Positions 6,521-23,708 of a stretch of 32,657 nucleotides of DNA are shown in pieces (positions within the stretch are counted from its first letter, which is position 1; the number at the start of each line of letters is the position of its first letter). The stretch is taken from positions 1 through 32,657 of the forward strand of contig QMXD01000004.1 of NCBI GenBank assembly GCA_003661965.1. Direction: 5' to 3'. Made by a program: the position numbers and the translations under genes. The notes below the pieces were generated by a model. It did no database searches, was not told the origin of the DNA, and saw nothing but the letters and a program-made list of their open reading frames with translations. The stretch is from Candidatus Hecatellales archaeon (GTDB taxonomy: Archaea; Thermoproteota; Bathyarchaeia; Hecatellales; Hecatellaceae).

Positions 6521-7750
6521 TTAAGCCCAAACTGAGTGTAAAGAAATAATTCTTATCCAAAAACGGTTTTCACCCCAAACACCAAAAATTTGTTTAAGAA
6601 GTATTTCAAGACCCTCAAAAATCCCCTTTTTCTTTGTGGCTATTGTGCCAACTATGGGTATGTTTTCAGGAAGCCTCATTCTTCTACGAATTTCTTCGAT
6701 TGGTAGGGCTTCAGCTAAATCTTGCTTGTTGGCAAAAACAACTAGGGGTAACCCGTAAACTCTAGCCTTTCTTAACATTTCTAGGGCTCTTGGGAAGCTT
6801 TCAGGTTTGGTGCTGTCAACAACCAGTATAACACCAACAGATTCACCTCCAAGCATTTCTAAAACAGGGTCAAACCTTTGCTGACCTATAGTCCCAAAAA
6901 GGTCTGCTGAAAATCCTTTATATTCAAGATGCCCAAAATCTAGGGCTATGGTTGTTGATTCTCTTTCAACACTTACAGCTCTAACAGATAAACCATGAAC
7001 AACCGTGGTTTTACCTGCATTATAGGGTCCTGTAACAAGAATTTTTGGTATGTAAACTTTTAAGCCTCCAGGTTTAACAAGCTTAAACGGTATGGGTGGT
7101 CTTTTAACCTCTCTACCAGCAATTTTTCTAGCCGTATAGATTTCTGTTGTGATTATGCTTCTTTCTAAGGCTTTTACATCAATTATGTTGTCACAGATTT
7201 CGCTAAGTCTTTGTTTTAAGGTTAAGTCATAATCCCAGTCTGTAAAAAGGTAGATTGGTGAAAAACTGTAAACCAAGCTCATCCTATTCCATAAAGCCAA
7301 CTCATCCAAAATTTTTAACCCAAAATAGTCTACAAGTGTTGACAGTGAATCTATGACTAAAAGTTTGTTAGGCTTTTTAATTTCTTTAACAACCCTAAGG
7401 ATTAGGCTGCTAATTTCTTCTAGGTTTGACTGGTCTGAGACGAAGTAGGGTTCACTGCTTTTTATACCCATAGCTGAGGAATACGAGTCTATAAGGATTA
7501 GATTTTTGTTTTCATGGTAGGATTGAACATCCCAACCATACCTACCAAAATCTTCAATAACAATATCAACTCTTTTATTGTTTACAAAATAGGCAACCAA
7601 ACCACCGTTTTTAAGCCACCTATAACAAATCTGGTAGGCTAAAACAGAACAGTCAACAAGAGGGTTACACCAGATAACTGTGCTTAACCCAACCTTTAAA
7701 CCATCCCTAAAAAACTCGTTTAAAACAGGAAAACCAGAAAGCTCACCCAA
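6521..7750 (-). CDS. Fusion of an inactivated KaiC/RecA-like domain and an MglA/COG2229-like small GTPase
   Basis: N-terminal domain has a degenerate Walker A (WCNPLVDCS) but keeps LLVIDSLS. C-terminal domain has GPYNAGKTT, TTIALDFG, GTIGQQRF and NKQD. Confidence 0.85.
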   Translation of the reverse strand: MGELSGFPVLNEFFRDGLKVGLSTVIWCNPLVDCSVLAYQICYRWLKNGGLVAYFVNNKRVDIVIEDFGRYGWDVQSYHENKNLILIDSYSSAMGIKSSEPYFVSDQSNLEEISSLILRVVKEIKKPNKLLVIDSLSTLVDYFGLKILDELALWNRMSLVYSFSPIYLFTDWDYDLTLKQRLSEICDNIIDVKALERSIITTEIYTARKIAGREVKRPPIPFKLVKPGGLKVYIPKILVTGPYNAGKTTVVHGLSVRAVSVERESTTIALDFGHLEYKGFSADLFGTIGQQRFDPVLEMLGGESVGVILVVDSTKPESFPRALEMLRKARVYGLPLVVFANKQDLAEALPIEEIRRRMRLPENIPIVGTIATKKKGIFEGLEILLKQIFGVWGENRFWIRIISLHSVWA

Positions 7751-7766
7751 AACCCTACACCCAAAA

Positions 7767-8488
7767 CTAAACAGAAATTATTATTCCTCTTCTAGGCTGA
7801 ATTATGAAGGGGAAAACACCCATACTATGGTTTACACCCCTCATTTTTCTGATGTAAAGCTCTCTCCTAAAACCAGTTTCAACCATTTGAAGTCTAAGAA
7901 CAATAATACCTGAAGCCAAAAACTCTTCAACACCATAACGGCTAAGCTTTTTTGTTCCTGTTGGAATTTCTGAGGTGCCTATGGTTGTTATGTTAAGCTC
8001 TTCTAGGGCTTGAAAAAGTCTTCTAAGATAGTTTCTAATATACATTTGGGCGTCAAGACTTGTTAAAGGCTCATCAGACCTAGCAACTAGGGGGGCTATA
8101 GGGTCTATAGCAAGCCTTTTAGCCTCAACCTCATCAATATAACCCTTTAACCCTTTAGATTGTCAACGATTTGAACAGAATCAACCTTTTTAATATCTGA
8201 AAAATATGGGGAAAGCTCAACCATAAGCAACCTATTTTCATCGATAAGCTTTTCAAGGTCCCAGCCTAAGGTTAAAGCATCCTCTACAACTCTTTCAGGT
8301 TTTTCGTCTATGGTTACATAGATACCGTTGTCACCATAGCTAACCCCATAATAAAGGTATTGGAGGGCGAAGGTTGTTTTACCTGTTCCAGTTTCACCTG
8401 CAACAAGGTAAACTCTTCCTTTTGGGAAGCCTCCCTCAATAAAGTTGTCCAACCCTTCGATTCCAGTTTTAACTTTAAGGTTTTCCAA
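7767..8488 (-). pseudogene. Single-domain KaiC-like ATPase (COG0467) interrupted by an 8-bp tandem duplication
   Basis: TGIEGLD...GGFP, GETGTGKT and RKMRG motifs are split over two ORFs. Removing one TAAAGGGT copy restores ...DNLKGYIDEVEAKRLAIDP... and a 237-aa ORF. Confidence 0.85.
8142..8157. repeat. Exact 8-bp tandem duplication (ACCCTTTA x2)
   Basis: Read directly at 8142-8149 and 8150-8157; creates the premature TAA in the kaiC-like gene. Confidence 0.9.
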
Positions 8489-12638: not shown

Positions 12639-13178
12639 TTGGCTGGGTTGGAAAAAAAACCTTTAAAAGGACTGCTTACAAACGGAAAGGTTTACGTTAA
12701 AAAAGATGAGTCTGGTGTAGAGGTTTTGCTTGAAAAGGGTTATGGTGAAAAGCTTAATGGGGAAGTGGAGTTTTCACCATGGGAAACACTGTATCTGGTT
12801 GGTGAGGGTTGGCTTGAGGTTTTTGATGAAAAAACAGGTGAAAAGCTTGGTTTTGAAAAGCTTGTTGAAATTTTTTCACGTGAGGATAGGTCTGTCTGGT
12901 CAAAATATCTGGTTTATAGGGATTTACGTTCTAGGGGTTATGTGGTGAAAAAGGGTTTTGGTCAAGGTGTAGATTTTAGGGTTTATGAACGTGGAGCCTA
13001 CGGTAAAGAGGCTGCAAAAATTCTTGTTTACAGCGTTTTTGAGGGTGAACCTATACCAATAAAAAACCTTATCAGCCTTCTTGACAGCGCAAGAAACATG
13101 AAAAAAGATGTTGTTATAGGGGTTATAGAAAGAAGAGGTGAAGTTGTCTATTATGCTCTTTCAACCTTCAACCTTTAA
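12639..13178 (+). CDS. endA: tRNA-intron (splicing) endonuclease subunit, probably the structural beta-type subunit
   Basis: ETLYL, YLVYRDLRSRGYVV, DFRVYERG and GEVVYY motifs. The protein contains no His, so the catalytic His is absent. Confidence 0.85.
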   Translation: MAGLEKKPLKGLLTNGKVYVKKDESGVEVLLEKGYGEKLNGEVEFSPWETLYLVGEGWLEVFDEKTGEKLGFEKLVEIFSREDRSVWSKYLVYRDLRSRGYVVKKGFGQGVDFRVYERGAYGKEAAKILVYSVFEGEPIPIKNLISLLDSARNMKKDVVIGVIERRGEVVYYALSTFNL

Positions 13179-13989: not shown

Positions 13990-15306
13990 TCACCCTTTTT
14001 TCAGCCTAGAAACAAAAAAATCTTTAAGCTTACCGATTAAAACCTCCTCCTCAAACTTTTTTTCCATATCCCTAACCTTAACCTTCCCCTCAGCAAGCTC
14101 ACGCTCCCCAACTATCAAAACATAGGGGAAACCAAGCCTATCAGCATACTCCAACTGTCTTGTAAGTGAACGGTTTCTTAGGTCAAAGTCTGCTGGTATC
14201 CCCCAAGACCTAAGCCTTTCAACAAGCTCAAGAGTTTTAACATGAACCCTCCTATTTGCTGAGGCTACAAAAACCCCCATTAAAGGTTTAGGTTTCTCCA
14301 AAACCCCGTTTTTTTCTAGGGTAAGCATAAGTCTTTCAATACCTCCAGCAACACCTGTGGCTGGAAGGTCTCTACCAAAAATTTTGCATAGTTTATCGTA
14401 ACGTCCACCAGCAACTATAGCCCCAACCTCCTTTGCAACCCTATCATAAACCTCAAAAACAACACCATCATAATAGCCTATCCCACGAACAATACTAGCA
14501 TCAAAAAAACATTCCTCAATCTTTTTGAATGCTTTTAGGCTTTCCATAAGCTTTTCAAGCTCCCCTAAACCAAGCAAAAACTTCTCGTTTTTTATTTGGT
14601 AGTTTAGGATAGTCGACAAAACCTTTTCATATTCACCGCTAACAGAAACAAAACCTAAAATTTTTTCTGTTTGTTGACTGTTTAACCCAAGCTTATCAAG
14701 CTCACCAATAAAATCTTCTTTTGAAATCTTCCTATACTTGTCGATTATTCTTAGAACAGCCTCAACCTTCTCACCTACAATGTTTAGGCTGTTTAGAAAA
14801 CCTTCAACAAGCTTTCTACTACTTATCCTAACCTCAAAACTTTTTAAACCAACATTTTTAAGAACATCAACAGTTAAAGAAATTATTTCAGCATCAGCAT
14901 CAGCCTCAACACTTCCAAAAATTTCCGCATCCCACTGGTAAAAACACCTATACCTACCAAACTGAGGCTCATCATACCTCCACATATTCGAAATTGCAGC
15001 CAGCTTAACTGGAAGGGTTAGGTCAGGTCTGCTTGCAACCATCCTTGCCAAACCAACTGTTAAATCAAACCTTAAACCAAGCTTTCTTCCAGCCTTATCC
15101 TCAAACCAGTAAATTTCATCTTTTATTGATGGACCACATTTAGCCTCTAAGGTTTCAAGGTTTTCGATTGGGGAGGGTTCAACAAGCCTAAAACCGTATC
15201 TTTCAAGAATCTCCATAATTTTTTTGTTGATTTGTAGACGTTGAGCCATTTCTTCAACTCCAATATCCCTCATTCCCCTAGGCAAAGGAAACCCTTTTAA
15301 AGCCAA
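13990..15306 (-). CDS. hisS: Histidyl-tRNA synthetase
   Basis: PRGMRD, LRFDLT, WRYDEPQFGRYRCFYQ, RGIGYY and AGGRYD motifs. Likely start is TTG at 15306. Confidence 0.97.
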   Translation of the reverse strand: MALKGFPLPRGMRDIGVEEMAQRLQINKKIMEILERYGFRLVEPSPIENLETLEAKCGPSIKDEIYWFEDKAGRKLGLRFDLTVGLARMVASRPDLTLPVKLAAISNMWRYDEPQFGRYRCFYQWDAEIFGSVEADADAEIISLTVDVLKNVGLKSFEVRISSRKLVEGFLNSLNIVGEKVEAVLRIIDKYRKISKEDFIGELDKLGLNSQQTEKILGFVSVSGEYEKVLSTILNYQIKNEKFLLGLGELEKLMESLKAFKKIEECFFDASIVRGIGYYDGVVFEVYDRVAKEVGAIVAGGRYDKLCKIFGRDLPATGVAGGIERLMLTLEKNGVLEKPKPLMGVFVASANRRVHVKTLELVERLRSWGIPADFDLRNRSLTRQLEYADRLGFPYVLIVGERELAEGKVKVRDMEKKFEEEVLIGKLKDFFVSRLKKG

Positions 15307-16794: not shown

Positions 16795-17322
16795 TTAGGG
16801 GAGAAGAAGCCTAACCAGTTTTTCAGGTAGGTTATCCCGATTTTTAAACGTTACCTCAAAAATTTTTACGTTAGGATTCTTTTTTATCGAGTCTATTAGG
16901 GTGTCTCTAGCCCTATAATGAACCGTTCCAAGCAGAGGTTTTATGTTGTCTAGGGCGGTTTTAACTGTCTCCCTAAACTCGTTTGAAAAAAGCTCCATAG
17001 GTCCAACCTCATCAACCACAACAACATCAGCCTCCCTTAAAGCCCTTCTAATAGCTTCAACCCCAACCTCAACCAAATCTTTAAGATTAACAACATATTT
17101 TCCAAGTTTAGGACCAGAACCTTGAAGAGTTGCCAAAAAACCTTTTTTGCCTGTTAAAACATCTATAACCTCAAAACCAATTCTTTTTCCCTCTTTTCTA
17201 ACCTCAAAGGTTAACATTCCACCAACAACCATACCCCTATCCTTTAAAGCTGAAACAACCCTTTTTATAACGGTTGTTTTACCTACCCCCGGAACCCCTG
17301 TTAAAAAAACCTTTTTAACCAT
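16795..17322 (-). CDS. THEP1/NTPase_1-family nucleoside-triphosphatase
   Basis: LTGVPGVGKTT, RIGF, GKYVV and VVDEVGPME motifs. Confidence 0.93.
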   Translation of the reverse strand: MVKKVFLTGVPGVGKTTVIKRVVSALKDRGMVVGGMLTFEVRKEGKRIGFEVIDVLTGKKGFLATLQGSGPKLGKYVVNLKDLVEVGVEAIRRALREADVVVVDEVGPMELFSNEFRETVKTALDNIKPLLGTVHYRARDTLIDSIKKNPNVKIFEVTFKNRDNLPEKLVRLLLP

Positions 17323-17350: not shown

Positions 17351-18480
17351 TTAAAGCCTACTAATCCTTTCAACCATTTTTTCTTTACCCTTAAAATATG
17401 CACGTACAGGTTCAAGCATTTTTGTTAGGGTTTCTACAACACTGTTTTTTAGGTCTAGGGGGTGAATTTTCCCTTCAACATAGCTTTTTTCAAGTTCCTC
17501 GTAGCTTGAAAACTCTACAGAGCCACCGTATTTTGCTTCCCTTTCAATAAGAAAGCTTTTTTCCCTAGCAAAAACCACATATTTTACTATTTCTAGTATA
17601 GGGTTTCCCTCAGCCTGTCTTGGTGGACAATATGCTCCAAGAATTTTGCTTTTTATATCCTCTGGAGAATCATGGATAAATATACATCCTTTAGGCTTAC
17701 TTTTAGACATCTTAGTTCCAATCTGAAGGCTAAGCCTCTCATTCTCATCATAGTGGGCTTCAGTTTTCTCGGAAAAACCAGCTAAACCAAGCAAAAGATG
17801 GCTGTGGAGACAAACAGGCTTCTTAACCGAAAGCTTTTCCGCTGTATCCCTAGCCAACATATGGGCTTTACGTTGATCCATCCCTGCACATGCACAGTCA
17901 ACCTCCAACATAAAAATGTCCGCCACCTGCATACATGGGTAGAATAGGTAGGCTGTTTCAACATCTGTTGGTTTTAGTTCTCTTCCCATGATTGGGAGGC
18001 ATCGGATAACCCTTGGAAGGTTTGATTTTTTAGCAACTCTTACGACGGTTTCCCAGTATCCATCCTTTTTTACAAGGTCTGAAGCCCAAACATATTTGAC
18101 TTTGTCTTTTGTTAAGCCTATAGAGGAGAAGGCTTCAATAAAGTATTCTCCACAATCTCTTATGGTTTGCATATCTCCCCCAAACTTGTTGTTTATCCAT
18201 GCATGCCAATCAGCTAAAAGAATTGTAAAGTCAAATCCAGCTTCAACCATATCTAAAATCTTGTAGCCACATACAAGCCCAGTTCCTATATGCATTATTC
18301 TGGGTGGTGAACCCTTCTTATTCCAGCCGAAATTTAAGGGTTCAACCACTATCCAGAAGGCTCAAAACCCCAGTAGGCTTTAGGTTTAGCCTCACACTCT
18401 AAAAGGTTTTTTAGCTCCTCATAGGTTATAATCTCCTCCAAGTTTCTTTTAACAAGCTCCAACTTTTCCTCCAAATCCAA
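17351..18480 (-). CDS. tyrS: Tyrosyl-tRNA synthetase, split into exon 1 (18480-18351) and exon 2 (18297-17351)
   Basis: Exon 1 (TTG at 18480, SD GGAGG at 18495-18491) encodes MDLEEKLELVKRNLEEIIT...AYWGFEPSG. Exon 2 encodes MHIG, LADWHAWIN, YPCMQVAD, GMDQRKAH and KMSKS. Joined length is 1077 nt, or 358 aa plus stop. Confidence 0.93.
18298..18350 (-). other. 53-nt bulge-helix-bulge (BHB) intron in tyrS pre-mRNA (candidate)
   Basis: Central helix CUGG/CCAG, 3-nt bulges AUA and AAU on opposite strands, intron stem GUGG(U)UGAACCCUU/AAGGGUUCACCAC. Cuts at AU^A and AA^U join to TCT GGA TTA ATG CAT (SGLMH). Confidence 0.88.
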
Positions 18481-18574
18481 AAAACATCATCCTCCATACC
18501 GTTAATCTTTCAACAACCTAACAAAAAACTTAGGTTAAATCTAGGTTTAAACTTTATTTTACGGTTTTAGGGGG

Positions 18575-18786
18575 GGTTGTCGCCCGAATAACTAACACTT
18601 AGCTTCACTGTTGAGCTTTACGCTCACCTCTGCTAAGCTCTCTCGTATCGGGCTTTTCTCCCCTTCCTACCGCCACCCCTCCCAATGTCCCACGGCTGGG
18701 TTTATCCGCCCTCATCGATAGCGCCCATTTCGAGTGGACGCTTCCTAGGTTGGACTCCGCTCCGCGGATTAAGGGGGAGGGGTGGT
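18575..18786 (-). ncRNA. GC-rich structured RNA, probably a two-hairpin H/ACA pseudouridylation guide
   Basis: Hairpin 1 (18768-18686): UCCGCGG/CCGUGGG then ACA. Hairpin 2 (18653-18578): GCCCGA/UCGGGC then gACA. Each has an internal pocket and a K-turn-like tandem GA element. An outer 11-bp helix CCACCCCUCCC/GGGAGGGGUGG is also present. Confidence 0.7.
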
Positions 18787-18831
18787 TTCAGCAAGAAAAA
18801 TGCAGTAAGCCTATGCTCTTAAGCTTTTTGG

Positions 18832-20520
18832 TTAGGTTTGGGAGCTATAAATGTTTAGGGGTTCGGTTAGGTCTAATTCAAAAGCGGCAATAGGGTTTGG
18901 TATCCTAAAGTTTTCCAAGATTTTTGGGTGGATTTCTCCGAGGATGACAGCCTCTTTTCCCCTAATCTTTATTGAGGCTACTCTTCCAGGTATAAAGCTT
19001 GGATGTTCTGTTGGTTTTATCTCCCAATCCTCAATTTTAAGGTTTTTAAGTAGCATGTAAACTATGGCTTGAATGTTTTCATAGCTTGCCTTATAGTCAC
19101 ATATTGCAGCTGCAACCCTTAACTCGTTTCTTGTTTTTGTTTCAGAATCCTCGTCAGGAACAACAACATCTCCACACTCAAAAACTTTTTGTGGATATTC
19201 AACATGAACGTTTGCTGAGAGAAAGCTTAAGATTCCTGGTAGAAGCCATCTTCTAACAACAGAAAACTCTGAGGTTTTTGGGTTTAAAAGCTCTATAAGG
19301 TCAAGTTTTTCAAAACCCATTTTTGTTGTTTGGTTTTCCATGCTTGTTAAAACATAGGTTGCAATTTCTTGGAAGCCAAAACCAACCATAAGCTCCCTAA
19401 CCTTCCTCATAAACCTTGTTTTTGGAAGCTCCCTACCATAGGTTAGGGTTGGGGGAAGTTCAGGTTTAAGCTTATCATACCCATAAGCCATTATCAGGTC
19501 TTCAACAAGGTCTATCTGATGTAAAATGTCGCAACGGTAGGATGGGATTGTAAGCAGAAGCTTTTCTTTACCCTTAACCTTCACATTAAATCTTGCCTTT
19601 TTCGCAAGTTTAACTAAGGTTTTAAGGTTTACGTTTAAACCTGAAACACTGTTAAAATAGTTTAGGTTAAGCTCAGCCTTAAACGGTTTTAGGGTTGCAA
19701 ACCAAACAACCCTTTTCTTATACCCTCTAGGATAAAAAACTTTAACACTTTCAACAATTCCACCTCTTTCAGCCAAGTTTGAAACTAGGATGTTTAGGGT
19801 TTGTTCTACTGGTTGGAGGCTTAAACCTGTTATGTCTATAAACAGGTTTTTTGTTGAGGTTGTTACCTTGGTGTATTCTCCGTTTATTATTGGTGGCATG
19901 GATAAAACCATACCTTTAGAGTCTAGAAGGATGGGGTAACGTGGAAGATTCTCTAAAATCCACCCATACTTTTTACCTTGATAGGTTTGCTCCAAAATTT
20001 CTTTGGCTGAGAGTGGTTTTGTCCCATCTAAAGGTATAAACCTTATTTTTTCAGGTTCTAAGGCTGTATAGGTTATTGGAGGCTTAACCACATCAAAATT
20101 ATGAACACCAATAGCAACCATCCTACGTTTCCTACCCAAGGTTTCATGAAGTTTTTCCTGAATCTGGATTAGCTGTTGGAAGGCTTCCTCTGTAAGCCTA
20201 ACATTCCTTACGACAGCCCCAACCACATAAGGTCTAACATCCCTAACCTTCTCATCAACCTTAACCACAACCTTTCCCCTTCTAACCTTGTAGGTTGGGA
20301 GACCTGTTTTAATCCCAAAAAACCCTTTAAGTGTTCTTGCAACACCCTCAACAGAAAACATGTCAGGTCTGTCAGCATTAACCTCAATGGTTAACTGTTT
20401 TTCAACAACAGATTTAACCTCACATTTTACAAGGGGTAAAACATATTCTAAATCCTTTAAAGGAATTTTTCTACCTAAAAGTTCACATAGGTCATCGTAT
20501 TGGATGGTTATGGTTGGCAT
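18832..20520 (-). CDS. pheT: Phenylalanyl-tRNA synthetase beta subunit
   Basis: MPTI, DRPDMFSVEGVAR, QEKLH..LGRKR, SMPPIIN, YRCDILHQIDL and GEIHP motifs. Confidence 0.97.
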   Translation of the reverse strand: MPTITIQYDDLCELLGRKIPLKDLEYVLPLVKCEVKSVVEKQLTIEVNADRPDMFSVEGVARTLKGFFGIKTGLPTYKVRRGKVVVKVDEKVRDVRPYVVGAVVRNVRLTEEAFQQLIQIQEKLHETLGRKRRMVAIGVHNFDVVKPPITYTALEPEKIRFIPLDGTKPLSAKEILEQTYQGKKYGWILENLPRYPILLDSKGMVLSMPPIINGEYTKVTTSTKNLFIDITGLSLQPVEQTLNILVSNLAERGGIVESVKVFYPRGYKKRVVWFATLKPFKAELNLNYFNSVSGLNVNLKTLVKLAKKARFNVKVKGKEKLLLTIPSYRCDILHQIDLVEDLIMAYGYDKLKPELPPTLTYGRELPKTRFMRKVRELMVGFGFQEIATYVLTSMENQTTKMGFEKLDLIELLNPKTSEFSVVRRWLLPGILSFLSANVHVEYPQKVFECGDVVVPDEDSETKTRNELRVAAAICDYKASYENIQAIVYMLLKNLKIEDWEIKPTEHPSFIPGRVASIKIRGKEAVILGEIHPKILENFRIPNPIAAFELDLTEPLNIYSSQT

Positions 20521-20524
20521 ATTT

Positions 20525-22033
20525 TCACCTCTCCCTCAAAAAATCAAGCCTTTTAGAGTGGAGTTCCCTAATATCGTCAACCCCAAGCTTAACCATAGCA
20601 AGCCTATCAACACCAATCCCCCAAGCCAAAACAGGATACCTAACACCCAAAGGTTTAGTAACCTCAGGTCTAAACATTCCAGCCCCAGCAGCCTCCATCC
20701 AACCAATCTTTGGATGATAAACAAAAGCCTCAACACTAGGCTCTGTAAAGGGGAAGTATCCAGGCTTAAACTCAACCCTTCCAATGTCTAAGGCTTTAGC
20801 TATCTCAGACAACATACCCAACAAATGTTTAAACGTCAAATTTTTGTCAACAACAATCCCCTCACAATGGTAAAACTCCATCGCATGTTTAGCGTCAAGA
20901 ACATCTGGACGGAAAACCCTTGAAACACAAAACATTTTAATGGGAGGATTCTTATGTTCTGAAAGAAATCTTGCGGATACGGCTGTAGTTTGGCTTCTCA
21001 TAACAAGTCTTTTTGCAACCTCAAAACTCCATTTGTATCTCCAACCCCTAGAACCTGTAACCCAACCATTCTCATGGGTTTTTTTAACCCTTTCAACAAG
21101 CTTTTTATCCTTTAAAACCCCATACCTAGGATTTTTTATCTGGTAACTGTCATGAATTTCTCTTGCAGGATGGTCTTGAGGCTGAAATAAAACATCAAAA
21201 TTCCAAAGCTCAAGCTCAACATAAGGTCCATCAGCCTCCTCAAAACCCATAGAAACAAGAATCCTTTTAAGCTCATCAAGAAACTCTAAATAAAAATGTT
21301 TTTTTCCAGGATAAATTTTTGGTGGGGTTGCTGTAACATCATATTCCCTAAATTTTGTTTCACGCCACCTACCAGAAACAATAAGTTCACTTGTTAACGC
21401 TGTTACTTCCTCCTCAAAAACTGGTTTAACTTCTCCGCTTTCAAGCTTAACCAAACCGTTTTCTGTAAGCCTAACAACCCTATCAACAAAAACCTTCTCT
21501 AAAACAAGCTTCCTTTTTTTAAGCTCGTTAACTGTGGCTTCTTCTTCTTGGCTAAGATTTTTTGATTTAACCTCACCCTCAACAAGAATCCTACGTAAAA
21601 GTTTTTCATCTCCTCCTTTGCTGGGTTTGGTTTCCACCCTAACCTTTACAACATCACCCTCTCTAACAATTTTACCCCAACCCTTCCTAACAATCCATCC
21701 TAAAGCAATTTTGACGGTGTCCTCAGAAAGGTTTGAATTTTTAACTATGTCTTCTAGGGTTGCCTCCCCACCAAGCATTAAAACAGTTTCAACAACCCTT
21801 CTCTCAGGTAAACCCTCTAAAGCATAACTTTTTCCCTCATCCGTTAGCCTATAGGAGGCTTCCTTTAACTCAAAAGTTTGAACATATCCTTCCTGCTCTA
21901 AACCTAGAATGCTCCTCATAACTGCTGAATGGTCTAAACCTAAGGTTTCACATATCTCCCTAACAGTTACCTCCATGTTTTTTTCTTTAGCAAACCTTAA
22001 AATTTCATAGCTTACCCTATCCACCCTTTCCAA
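20525..22033 (-). CDS. pheS: Phenylalanyl-tRNA synthetase alpha subunit
   Basis: WNFDVLFQPQDHPARE, RVFRPD, YFPFTEPS and GAGMFRPE motifs. Confidence 0.97.
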   Translation of the reverse strand: MERVDRVSYEILRFAKEKNMEVTVREICETLGLDHSAVMRSILGLEQEGYVQTFELKEASYRLTDEGKSYALEGLPERRVVETVLMLGGEATLEDIVKNSNLSEDTVKIALGWIVRKGWGKIVREGDVVKVRVETKPSKGGDEKLLRRILVEGEVKSKNLSQEEEATVNELKKRKLVLEKVFVDRVVRLTENGLVKLESGEVKPVFEEEVTALTSELIVSGRWRETKFREYDVTATPPKIYPGKKHFYLEFLDELKRILVSMGFEEADGPYVELELWNFDVLFQPQDHPAREIHDSYQIKNPRYGVLKDKKLVERVKKTHENGWVTGSRGWRYKWSFEVAKRLVMRSQTTAVSARFLSEHKNPPIKMFCVSRVFRPDVLDAKHAMEFYHCEGIVVDKNLTFKHLLGMLSEIAKALDIGRVEFKPGYFPFTEPSVEAFVYHPKIGWMEAAGAGMFRPEVTKPLGVRYPVLAWGIGVDRLAMVKLGVDDIRELHSKRLDFLRER

Positions 22034-22065
22034 CCCGCCTAAACATAGTCTAACAAATCTATTTT

Positions 22066-22446
22066 TTAGCTTTTCCCAGTTTTCTTAAACATTTCTTCTG
22101 TGATTATTCCAGCCTCAACAAGTTTAACAACAGCATTTACACTTGCCTCCCCAACAAGCCTTCCAATATCACCTCTTTTATGCTCCCATCTAAGCTTGGT
22201 TGAGCCGCTTTTAGAGTTATAAACAACACCAACAACATTCTCAACCCTAACAAAATCAACATCCCTAATCTTTCTAAGTGTAACCTTATCCTCAGCCTCA
22301 GCATAAACCAAACCTTTCCCACAAACCCTTTCAGGAAAAACCTTTTTATCCTCCAAATATTCTTTAGGCACAAAAGAATAACAACAGCTTAAAATCAAGA
22401 ATTTTCTAAAGTTTTCAAGTGGACATGTTAAATCGATAAATACCAA
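22066..22446 (-). CDS. Hypothetical protein upstream of pheS
   Basis: 126-aa ORF, co-oriented with pheST, TTG start after a G-rich SD-like element. Confidence 0.65.
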   Translation of the reverse strand: MVFIDLTCPLENFRKFLILSCCYSFVPKEYLEDKKVFPERVCGKGLVYAEAEDKVTLRKIRDVDFVRVENVVGVVYNSKSGSTKLRWEHKRGDIGRLVGEASVNAVVKLVEAGIITEEMFKKTGKS

Positions 22447-22574
22447 GGTTTTCCCCTAACCATTAAACATGCTCATAGGAGGCTTCTCCTAAAAAAGGCT
22501 TTACCCAAACCTTTAAAGGGTTTATGGTAAACTTTATCTTTTCCTGAATAAAATATCCATCAACCGTTAGGACG

Positions 22575-23708
22575 GTGAACCTATTGTCATCCGACGAGGA
22601 AATGGTTGTAACACCATGGAAGGTTTCAGGAAAAATAGACTATGAAAAACTTATAAGACAGTTTGGAACCCAACCCCTAACAAAAGAAATCCTAGAAAAA
22701 CTCAAAAAACATGCTGGAAGCCTCCACTACCTAATAAGAAGAGGATTCTTCTTCTGCCATAGAGACTTTGACCTCATACTAAACCTTTACGAGCAAGGTA
22801 AAAAATTCGTTTTATACACTGGGAGAGGGCCTTCAGGTCCTGTTCATCTTGGTCATTTGCTTCCGTGGATTTTTACTAAGTATCTTCAGGATGCTTTTGA
22901 TGTTAAGCTTTATTTTCAGATGACTGACGATGAAAAGTTTCTTCTCCACCATGATTTTACGGTTGAAAGGTCTGTAGGCTACACCTACGATAATGCTTTG
23001 GATGTTATAGCTATAGGGTTTGAGAAGGAAAAGACAAGGATAATTTCCGACATAAAAAACATTAGGGCTTTATACAACATCGCGGTTAAGGTGGCAAAAC
23101 ATGTAAACTTTTCAGTTGTTAGAGCTGTTTTTGGTTTTGAGGAAAGCACAAACATAGGGCTAATATTTTTCCCAGCAATTCAGGCGGCACCATGCTTTCT
23201 AGAGTCAGTTTTAACTGGTGAAAATGTTCCAGCCCTAATTCCAGCAGCCATAGACCAAGACCCATACTGGAGGGTTACAAGGGATGTTGCACCTAAGCTT
23301 GGATTTTATAAGCCTGCCCAAATCCATAGCAAGTTTTTGGCTGGGCTTGGTAAAGGTGGGAAAATGTCTGCCTCCCAGCCTGAAACATGTATTTTTACCA
23401 CGGATTCTCTTGAGGCTGCTGAAAAAAAGGTTTTTAATGCTTTTACAGGTGGGCAGCCAACAGCCCAAGAACAAAGAAGGTTTGGTGGAAACCCTGAGGT
23501 TTGCACAGTTTACCAGTATATGCTTTATCTTTTTGAGGAGGATGATGGGAAGGTTAGGGAGCTTTGGGAAAACTGTAGGTCTGGAAGGATAATTTGTGGG
23601 GAGTGTAAAAGTATTCTTGCTGAAAGAGTAAAAAAGTTTCTTTTGGAGCATCAAAAAAGGAGAGAAAAAGCTAAAGATGTTGTTGAAGAATATTTTTTGA
23701 AGGATTAA
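22575..23708 (+). CDS. trpS: Tryptophanyl-tRNA synthetase
   Basis: VTPW, YTGRGPSGPVHLGH, TDDEK, AIDQDPY, KMSAS and AFTGG motifs. Confidence 0.97.
   Translation: MNLLSSDEEMVVTPWKVSGKIDYEKLIRQFGTQPLTKEILEKLKKHAGSLHYLIRRGFFFCHRDFDLILNLYEQGKKFVLYTGRGPSGPVHLGHLLPWIFTKYLQDAFDVKLYFQMTDDEKFLLHHDFTVERSVGYTYDNALDVIAIGFEKEKTRIISDIKNIRALYNIAVKVAKHVNFSVVRAVFGFEESTNIGLIFFPAIQAAPCFLESVLTGENVPALIPAAIDQDPYWRVTRDVAPKLGFYKPAQIHSKFLAGLGKGGKMSASQPETCIFTTDSLEAAEKKVFNAFTGGQPTAQEQRRFGGNPEVCTVYQYMLYLFEEDDGKVRELWENCRSGRIICGECKSILAERVKKFLLEHQKRREKAKDVVEEYFLKD

Follow-up and report, generated by a model that had tools for sequence, protein, structure and literature searches.

A probable bulge-helix-bulge intron in the tyrosyl-tRNA synthetase pre-mRNA of a Hecatellales archaeon and its relatives in Bathyarchaeia

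On the minus strand of a 32,657-nucleotide stretch of contig QMXD01000004.1 (the window, throughout this text), from the draft genome of a Candidatus Hecatellales archaeon (GCA_003661965.1), the gene for tyrosyl-tRNA synthetase (TyrRS), tyrS, is broken by a stop codon and a change of frame just ahead of its HIGH-type motif. How could a whole synthetase be made from such a locus? We propose that the 53 nt at 18350..18298 very probably form a bulge-helix-bulge (BHB) intron of the tyrS pre-mRNA, tyrS being the sole TyrRS gene in the draft. The parts of the interrupted gene are as follows.

18351..18480, minus strand: tyrS exon 1, with a TTG start, 43 codons and U18351 (base 1 of the split Leu codon)
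18298..18350, minus strand: candidate BHB intron, 53 nt, A18350 to A18298; in the unspliced reading TAG stands directly after the Gly codon
17351..18297, minus strand: tyrS exon 2, in which UA (18297-18296) completes the Leu codon and ATG 18295 (MHIG...) leads to the stop codon

The exon 1 open reading frame (ORF) runs from TTG 18480 to 18352, 43 codons whose last residues are GFEPSG, and TAG abuts codon 43; the MHIG-bearing ORF (ATG 18295 to 17351, minus strand) is in a frame other than that of exon 1. The original prediction had read the locus in just this way, with MHIG resuming in another frame past a 53-nt insert, a stop after 43 codons in unspliced mRNA, and excision giving GFEPSG-LMHIG in a TyrRS of 358 aa. 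All of this held: excising 18350..18298 joins U18351 to U18297-A18296 as one Leu codon, and the joined product is 43 + 1 + 314 = 358 aa. Exon 1 encodes a typical TyrRS N-terminus, 55-81% identical to exon 1 of relatives (tblastn). Exon 2 matches Pfam PF00579 (E 2.1e-39), the NCBIfam tyrosine--tRNA ligase equivalog NF006330 (384.6 bits against a cut-off of 220, profile positions 45-338 of 342) and the solved TyrRS chain PDB 2cya_A (E 2.1e-91), while residue 46 of PDB 2cyc_A aligns with the M of MHIG, about 44 N-terminal residues being absent from exon 2. The 44 profile positions missing from exon 2 are matched by exon 1 plus one residue, so the joined exons span a full-length TyrRS. As its start codon tyrS has TTG. 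Just upstream, but shifted by one base from this frame, stand a pair of ATGs and six consecutive T (18479-18490, minus strand); the TTG may thus be genuine, or the assembly may have the length of a homopolymer wrong.

The draft genome comprises 1.30 Mb in 154 contigs (90% complete, 39% G+C), and by PF00579 and NCBIfam profile matches no second TyrRS was found among its contigs. Two genes only match PF00579, the interrupted tyrS and TrpRS (NF008927, 540 bits); the intact second tyrS that the original prediction had named, together with solely unspliced transcripts, as evidence against itself is not present in the draft. Intron-bearing relatives have one strong tyrS match per genome, second matches where listed being weak (E 8.6e-7 or weaker). 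As judged from these gene inventories, a functional TyrRS would require removal of the insert, as is expected of a pre-mRNA intron.

The RNA of the junction can be folded into the following elements, in transcript order.

18357..18361, minus strand: exon-exon helix, 5' strand GCCUU, pairing with 18292-18296
18353..18356, minus strand: central 4-bp helix, 5' strand CUGG, exonic (the last two Ser codon bases and the GG of the Gly codon), pairing with 18300-18303
18350..18352, minus strand: 5' bulge AUA, predicted cut U18351/A18350
18336..18349, minus strand: intron stem, 5' strand, 13 paired bases and a bulged U18344 in the minimum-free-energy (MFE) structure
18304..18316, minus strand: intron stem, 3' strand, in the MFE structure
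18300..18303, minus strand: central 4-bp helix, 3' strand CCAG, intronic
18297..18299, minus strand: 3' bulge AAU, predicted cut A18298/U18297
18292..18296, minus strand: exon-exon helix, 3' strand AAUGC

Two 3-nt bulges thus lie on opposite strands with a 4-bp helix between them, the arrangement that defines a BHB. Going outward from the bulge, the exon-exon helix has two U-A pairs, a C.U mismatch, a C-G and a G-C. An 81-nt stretch folds at -28.9 kcal/mol (z = -3.70), with one of 200 shuffles as good, and a 171-nt stretch reaches z = -4.76, with none of 200 as good. Rfam 15 at gathering thresholds across the window returned a tRNA-Arg only, and no known RNA family at the tyrS junction. A self-splicing group I or group II intron was considered and ruled out: it has no Rfam match, and the inserts of 21-53 nt found at this site are far too short for a ribozyme.

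The same insertion site is used in relatives. Taking the 30 best tyrS places from 41 genomes and measuring the distance from the exon-1 match to the exon-2 match, we found an insert between GFE[P/C]SG and [M/V]H[I/L]G in 12 of the 30 loci (our own and 29 from relatives of the same class); the remaining 18 have a single codon at that place (L, M, P or F). A covariance model was then built from 13 aligned insert-bearing junctions, exon flanks included, which scores 75.8 bits (E 2.3e-12) on our own locus at 18281-18369. It matched 29 of 151 evenly drawn Bathyarchaeia genomes, once each, and every match sits at the same tyrS codon, between GFE[P/C]SG and MH[I/L]G. By family, with our own genome excluded, matches were obtained in 6 of 13 genomes of f1, 3 of 3 of f3, 2 of 2 of f7, 3 of 3 of f13, 5 of 5 of f18, 3 of 3 of f21 and 6 of 11 of f26, and in none of the other 24 families. 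A phylum-wide draw of 151 genomes gave five matches, all in the class, and none in the 131 Thermoproteota outside Bathyarchaeia. The 80 closest tyrS loci among GTDB species genomes include DPANN, Korarchaeia-like, Nitrososphaeria and Patescibacteria records; five carry the insert, all titled Bathyarchaeia or Hecatella, 73 do not, and two were missed by the motif, their translation showing no interruption. The alignment of tyrS from relatives that the original prediction had proposed as a check has accordingly been made, with the insert present or absent at exactly this codon and, as set out below, with helices that covary.

Could the insert simply stay in the message? TyrRS might then be made as two polypeptides, a 43-aa N-terminal piece and a body that begins with MHIG or somewhat earlier; alternatively, the locus might be a pseudogene with a tolerated hairpin or mobile-element scar. 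In favour of this, an ORF with a GTG start at 18349 runs through the insert and exon 2 (332 aa), and the M of MHIG is ATG in most loci. However, start codons and frames within the insert are not conserved, and relative L006 has GTG where others have ATG. The inserts of the 29 loci are 21-53 nt long and fall into all three length classes (12, 5 and 12 loci with a remainder of 0, 1 and 2 modulo 3), and reading exon 1 onward meets a stop before exon 2 in 28 loci and a frameshift in the remaining one, so the inserts cannot be coding. Exon 1, by contrast, is conserved as protein to the degree given above, and tyrS is the sole TyrRS gene in the draft. The GFEPSG strand and the HIGH motif of class I synthetases belong to the nucleotide-binding fold, which a break between them would cut. 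Conserved pairing and a fixed synonymous base, to which we now turn, also stand against an unspliced insert, and we consider it very unlikely.

In the 13-sequence alignment the central helix has 100% of its cells paired, with compensatory change in two of the four pairs, and the first five pairs of the intron helix are 96.9% paired, with compensatory change in four of the five; neither helix has a coding role within the insert. The covariation score is 0.367 (0.188 +/- 0.021 in shuffles, with none of 500 reaching 0.367), and shifting the 3' partners by 1-3 columns lowers it to 0.03-0.131. Where the Ser codon UCU is replaced by AGC or UCC, the intron 3' end changes from CCAG to CCGC or CCGG/CUGG to match. 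RNAalifold, given no structure, predicts both the central and the intron helix. Across the 29 loci, all four central pairs can form in 26, and the first bulge base is A in every one. That bulge base is the third base of a Gly codon, and the codon is GGA in all 29 loci with the intron versus one of 29 intronless Bathyarchaeia loci, which points to selection on this synonymous Gly site only where the intron exists. A cut after bulge nucleotide 2 would re-form Leu in 23 loci (UUA, UUG, CUA, CUC or CUG) and Met in six, both being residues also found at this place in intronless relatives.

The ribosome might instead cross the insert, by programmed frameshifting or by translational bypassing of the kind found in phage T4 gene 60, where a GGA take-off codon is followed at once by a stop, and a hairpin, a gap of some 50 nt and a matching landing codon complete the arrangement. 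There is a likeness, in that GGA-UAG stands at the base of a stable hairpin in our sequence and most relatives, with gap lengths of similar order. But our own sequence and that of L003, by reading, have no matching GGA landing codon before exon 2, and in 11 of the 29 loci GGA is followed by CA or AA, not UA, and hence not directly by UAG. Pairing of CUGG with the 3' end of the insert covaries, and it is needed by a BHB, not by bypassing; for frameshifting, the occurrence of all three length classes means that no single shift would fit. Crossing by the ribosome is therefore less probable still than an unspliced insert. Least probable of all, to the point of being negligible, is an assembly or binning artefact of this metagenome-assembled genome (MAG): the draft is in many contigs, but contigs of two other DNA runs bridge the insert with small indels of their own, and 28 other genomes from many assemblies have homologous inserts at the same codon.

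No RNA run appears among the 14 sequencing runs listed for this DNA. The bridging contigs are X2 record 15 (18208-18600) and X3 record 22 (18264-18374), and X1 record 8 extends from exon 2 for 20 nt into the insert without any difference. Inside the insert the indels are +2 nt in X2, and +2 and -1 in X3, the -1 being the bulged U18344 of the intron stem. DNA lacking the insert, which would have spoken against the original prediction, was looked for among the contigs of the searched runs: X2 and X3 hold the insert, and no contig joins 18351 to 18297, the two listed joints being elsewhere. In runs X1-X4 there are many contigs from other organisms whose match is confined to 18173-18216, the conserved tyrS part that codes for LLADWHA, beyond which they diverge; this is the source of apparent joints. 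The accompanying contig rows are matches of about 40 nt with four or five differences, and these short matches look like the tyrS of other organisms.

Several points weigh against a BHB intron, or against its strict form. The single-sequence MFE favours a 6-bp central helix, which draws in the leading AA of the AAUAAU repeat and leaves no clean 3-nt bulge on the 3' side, and RNAalifold adds a fifth central pair, U13-A71. Two registers of nearly equal standing thus exist, the strict BHB being one of them; the fold claimed by the original prediction stands in its helices, bulges, 13-bp stem and exon helix with one mismatch, and the word canonical applies to it only in the register with AAU as the 3' bulge. 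The exon-exon helix is just 70.8% paired in the 13 sequences, with no compensatory change, and because it is weak the motif of many relatives would be a relaxed form of the BHB. The central helix has just three of its four pairs in three of the 29 loci. The covariance model, which has the flanks in it, re-found the 13 sequences it was built from, and related genomes are not independent samples. Finally, with a draft 90% complete and in 154 contigs, an unassembled second tyrS is conceivable.

With a BHB intron as the favoured explanation, splicing would proceed as follows. In the folded transcript CUGG, near the end of exon 1, would pair with CCAG near the intron end, with a 3-nt bulge on either side of this 4-bp helix and the 13-bp stem closing the intron side. 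The splicing endonuclease EndA would cut both strands between bulge nucleotides 2 and 3, and RtcB would ligate the exons. Ligation would re-form the Leu codon (U + UA) and so put the HIGH-type motif MHIG at the distance of two residues behind GFEPSG that uninterrupted TyrRS shows; a message left unspliced would terminate after its 43 codons. We infer cleavage, ligation and translation of the spliced mRNA from sequence comparison.

Genes for this machinery are present. The genome encodes two EndA paralogs. Against the two-repeat EndA model, the one on contig C1 (40671-41225, 184 aa) aligns with the C-terminal, catalytic repeat, and the other, in the window, aligns with the N-terminal structural repeat (1-162 of 350) and weakly matches 'subunit beta' models.

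12639..13178, plus strand: EndA paralog, structural (beta-like), 179 aa, with PF02778 and PF01974; NCBIfam endA 85.5 bits

Since two paralogs are encoded, the enzyme is probably an (alpha-beta)2 heterotetramer, a form that passages in two sources link to a broad substrate range (PMC5829648, PMC2724299). The beta-like gene lies 5 kb from the intron-bearing tyrS, its catalytic paralog being on contig C1. RtcB is encoded once, on contig C14 (598.9 bits, the match spanning 6981-8294).

tRNA genes number 27-28 in this 90% complete genome, three or four of them intron-bearing, and several end in genome-encoded CCA. A tRNA-Tyr was not found in the draft by ARAGORN or among 28 assignable Rfam tRNA matches, and relaxed ARAGORN settings gave noise; absent tRNAs may be hidden by non-canonical introns or unassembled. 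An ARAGORN tRNA-Ile(AAT) in the window (14220-14314, minus strand, 95 nt, 40% G+C) has acceptor-stem mismatches, is absent from both Rfam searches and is probably spurious. A tRNA-Ser(GGA) with a 13-nt intron lies at C53:6215-6314 (plus strand), about 50 nt downstream of cbf5. Derivation of the tyrS intron from that of tRNA-Ser(GGA) was considered and rejected: the CUGGA context of its anticodon loop recurs at the tyrS 5' splice site, but no similarity between the introns was seen.

Is tyrS alone in this genome? The scan for other BHB-split genes that the original prediction had called for recovered cbf5 besides tyrS. A 26-nt BHB insert divides the cbf5 of our genome (contig C53, 5378-5403, plus strand; L115:1491-1516) and was picked out by the strict BHB scan; the upstream piece has the DKCLD domain and the downstream piece TruB_N, TruB_C_2 and PUA. 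The cut rule used for tyrS, applied unchanged, restores the catalytic Asp codon (G|AT) together with the motif GGTL-D-P.VTGVLP, and the insert boundary is the one given for crenarchaeal cbf5 in the cited part of PMC2738675. That part also predicts cleavage between the second and third bulge residues (Yokobori 2009, PMC2738675), so the cut after bulge nucleotide 2 assumed in the original prediction is found stated there and is fitted by cbf5 of our own genome. Since it is an mRNA intron of a published kind at the published site, the cbf5 intron serves as an in-genome positive control for the proposed mRNA splicing. Among Bathyarchaeia cbf5 loci (30 fetched, one unparsed), 27 of the 29 parsed have an insert of 17-34 nt at the same boundary; in every one of these 27 the cut rule would restore GAT or GAC, and the central helix has all four pairs in 25 of them and three in two. 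In the passages cited, Yokobori 2009 lists cbf5 introns in Desulfurococcales and Sulfolobales only (PMC2738675), so the cbf5 intron may have a greater age or a wider distribution than was inferred there.

The scans themselves are noisy. A loose scan for a BHB with ORF fusion gave 3681 candidates. The strict BHB scan gave 139 versus 325 in a reversed-sequence control; a coding-potential filter left 33, of which ten were read and only tyrS and cbf5 were convincing, the other read candidates containing the downstream gene's start and ribosome-binding region or having non-coding-looking flanks. A relaxed short-intron scan gave 435 versus 44 in the control, mostly ordinary gene junctions. No further convincing mRNA intron was found in these scans, which would miss relaxed motifs and short exons.

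How old is the tyrS intron? In a quick maximum-likelihood TyrRS tree of exon-2 proteins (61 rows, three duplicates dropped), the intron state changes at least eight times, four of the changes being forced by well-supported branches. Its 16 intron-bearing rows were picked via the covariance-model search, which biases the proportions, and the tree itself cannot separate gain from loss. Common to all the introns are their site, an A as first bulge base and an end of the CC[A/G]G type; most also start with a purine-rich AG or AA. Because of these shared features the simplest reading is one old gain within the class Bathyarchaeia followed by several losses, repeated gain appearing less likely; for the cbf5 intron, one old gain followed by losses is argued likewise in the cited part of PMC2738675.

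Whether the intron does anything for its host is a more tentative matter. It might be a control point rather than a neutral passenger, with TyrRS output gated by EndA/RtcB or by a factor that binds the junction, which resembles an anticodon arm. We regard this as doubtful: an invariant base in the bulge and retention over a long time in seven families would fit control, and would equally fit mere upkeep of spliceability. The coupling of TyrRS supply to tRNA splicing is speculation. If it were true, charging capacity would follow the cell's capacity to mature tRNA, and, with cbf5, Bathyarchaeia would have a small set of translation and RNA-modification genes under mRNA-splicing control.

Near tyrS are two more aminoacyl-tRNA synthetase genes, pheT and trpS, all three falling inside 6.4 kb (17351-23708).

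16795-17322, minus strand: NTPase_1 (PF03266) gene, directly downstream of tyrS
17351-18480, minus strand: tyrS
18832-20520, minus strand: pheT (PheRS beta chain)
22575-23708, plus strand: trpS

What, then, is new? The original prediction knew of no BHB intron in an aminoacyl-tRNA synthetase, and full-text literature searches, with most subscription journals outside their scope, found no report of one in tyrS or in any other aminoacyl-tRNA synthetase. In the cited passage of Schwarz et al. 2020 (PMC7714728), cbf5 is the only archaeal mRNA intron reported besides their own case in a 5' untranslated region (UTR), and in the reference list of a 2025 NAR paper (PMC12397907) only three papers, all on cbf5, deal with pre-mRNA or protein-coding introns. 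Yokobori 2009 mentions unconfirmed intron predictions in a virus and in Sulfolobus genomes in the part cited (PMC2738675). As far as the literature searches reach, these sequence comparisons appear to make tyrS the first aminoacyl-tRNA synthetase gene, and the second family of protein-coding genes, in which a BHB intron is conserved. On this reading, with a second and well-conserved case in an enzyme essential to translation, mRNA would be a recurrent substrate of the tRNA-splicing machinery and not a one-gene oddity; about 29 natural variants would be at hand for studying what EndA requires in an mRNA context, and the gain and loss of introns in protein genes of archaea could be studied in a second data set. 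There is a practical side also. Gene callers will report the tyrS of intron-bearing MAGs as truncated or broken, and the cbf5 result suggests the same annotation fault for 27 of 29 Bathyarchaeia cbf5 genes; annotation, and inferences that aminoacyl-tRNA synthetases are absent, would both be affected.

The nearest known system is the BHB intron in cbf5 pre-mRNA of Crenarchaeota, reportedly treated by Watanabe in 2002 and Yoshinari in 2006. As far as the cited parts of PMC2738675 go, the tyrS intron is like it in being a short BHB intron within an ORF that splits a codon beside a catalytic motif, in the predicted cut between bulge residues 2 and 3 and its occurrence in a lineage whose EndA is probably hetero-oligomeric too, in a patchy distribution read as gain with lineage-specific loss, and in a variable interior with conserved ends. 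It differs in its host, an aminoacyl-tRNA synthetase rather than a pseudouridine synthase, in its occurrence in Bathyarchaeia, and in its site between GFEPSG and the HIGH-type motif. Splicing of cbf5 is backed by cDNA, antibody and in vitro work in the parts cited (PMC2738675), whereas the tyrS intron is predicted from comparison. A second mRNA substrate of the splicing endonuclease, according to passages of PMC7714728, is the 46-nt BHB intron in the 5' UTR of HVO_1309 of Haloferax volcanii, found as circular RNA and cut in vitro. Unlike the tyrS intron it lies in a UTR, the protein sequence being independent of it, and belongs to a euryarchaeon (same passages).

Archaeal pre-tRNA introns have the hBHBh' motif defined in a footnote of PMC7714728, and as described there the intron at 37/38 has an exon helix, a 4-bp helix with its 5' strand exonic and its 3' strand intronic, two 3-nt bulges and an intron helix, an arrangement that our own tyrS junction can adopt as well. 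Our own junction also has two Watson-Crick pairs in each outer helix, and the same enzymes would serve both; the tyrS substrate, unlike a pre-tRNA, is an mRNA with no tRNA body, and its exon helix is weak in most relatives. A more distant parallel is the splicing of HAC1/XBP1, which ends in RtcB-type ligation and alters the reading frame. The likeness to what is proposed for tyrS lies in the use of a protein endonuclease at two structured mRNA sites, followed by joining of the exons by a ligase and a change of frame. This splicing, carried out by IRE1, has been named spliceosome-independent (PMC13149111). Its nuclease and site structure are unrelated to those of tyrS, and it is eukaryotic and stress-regulated.

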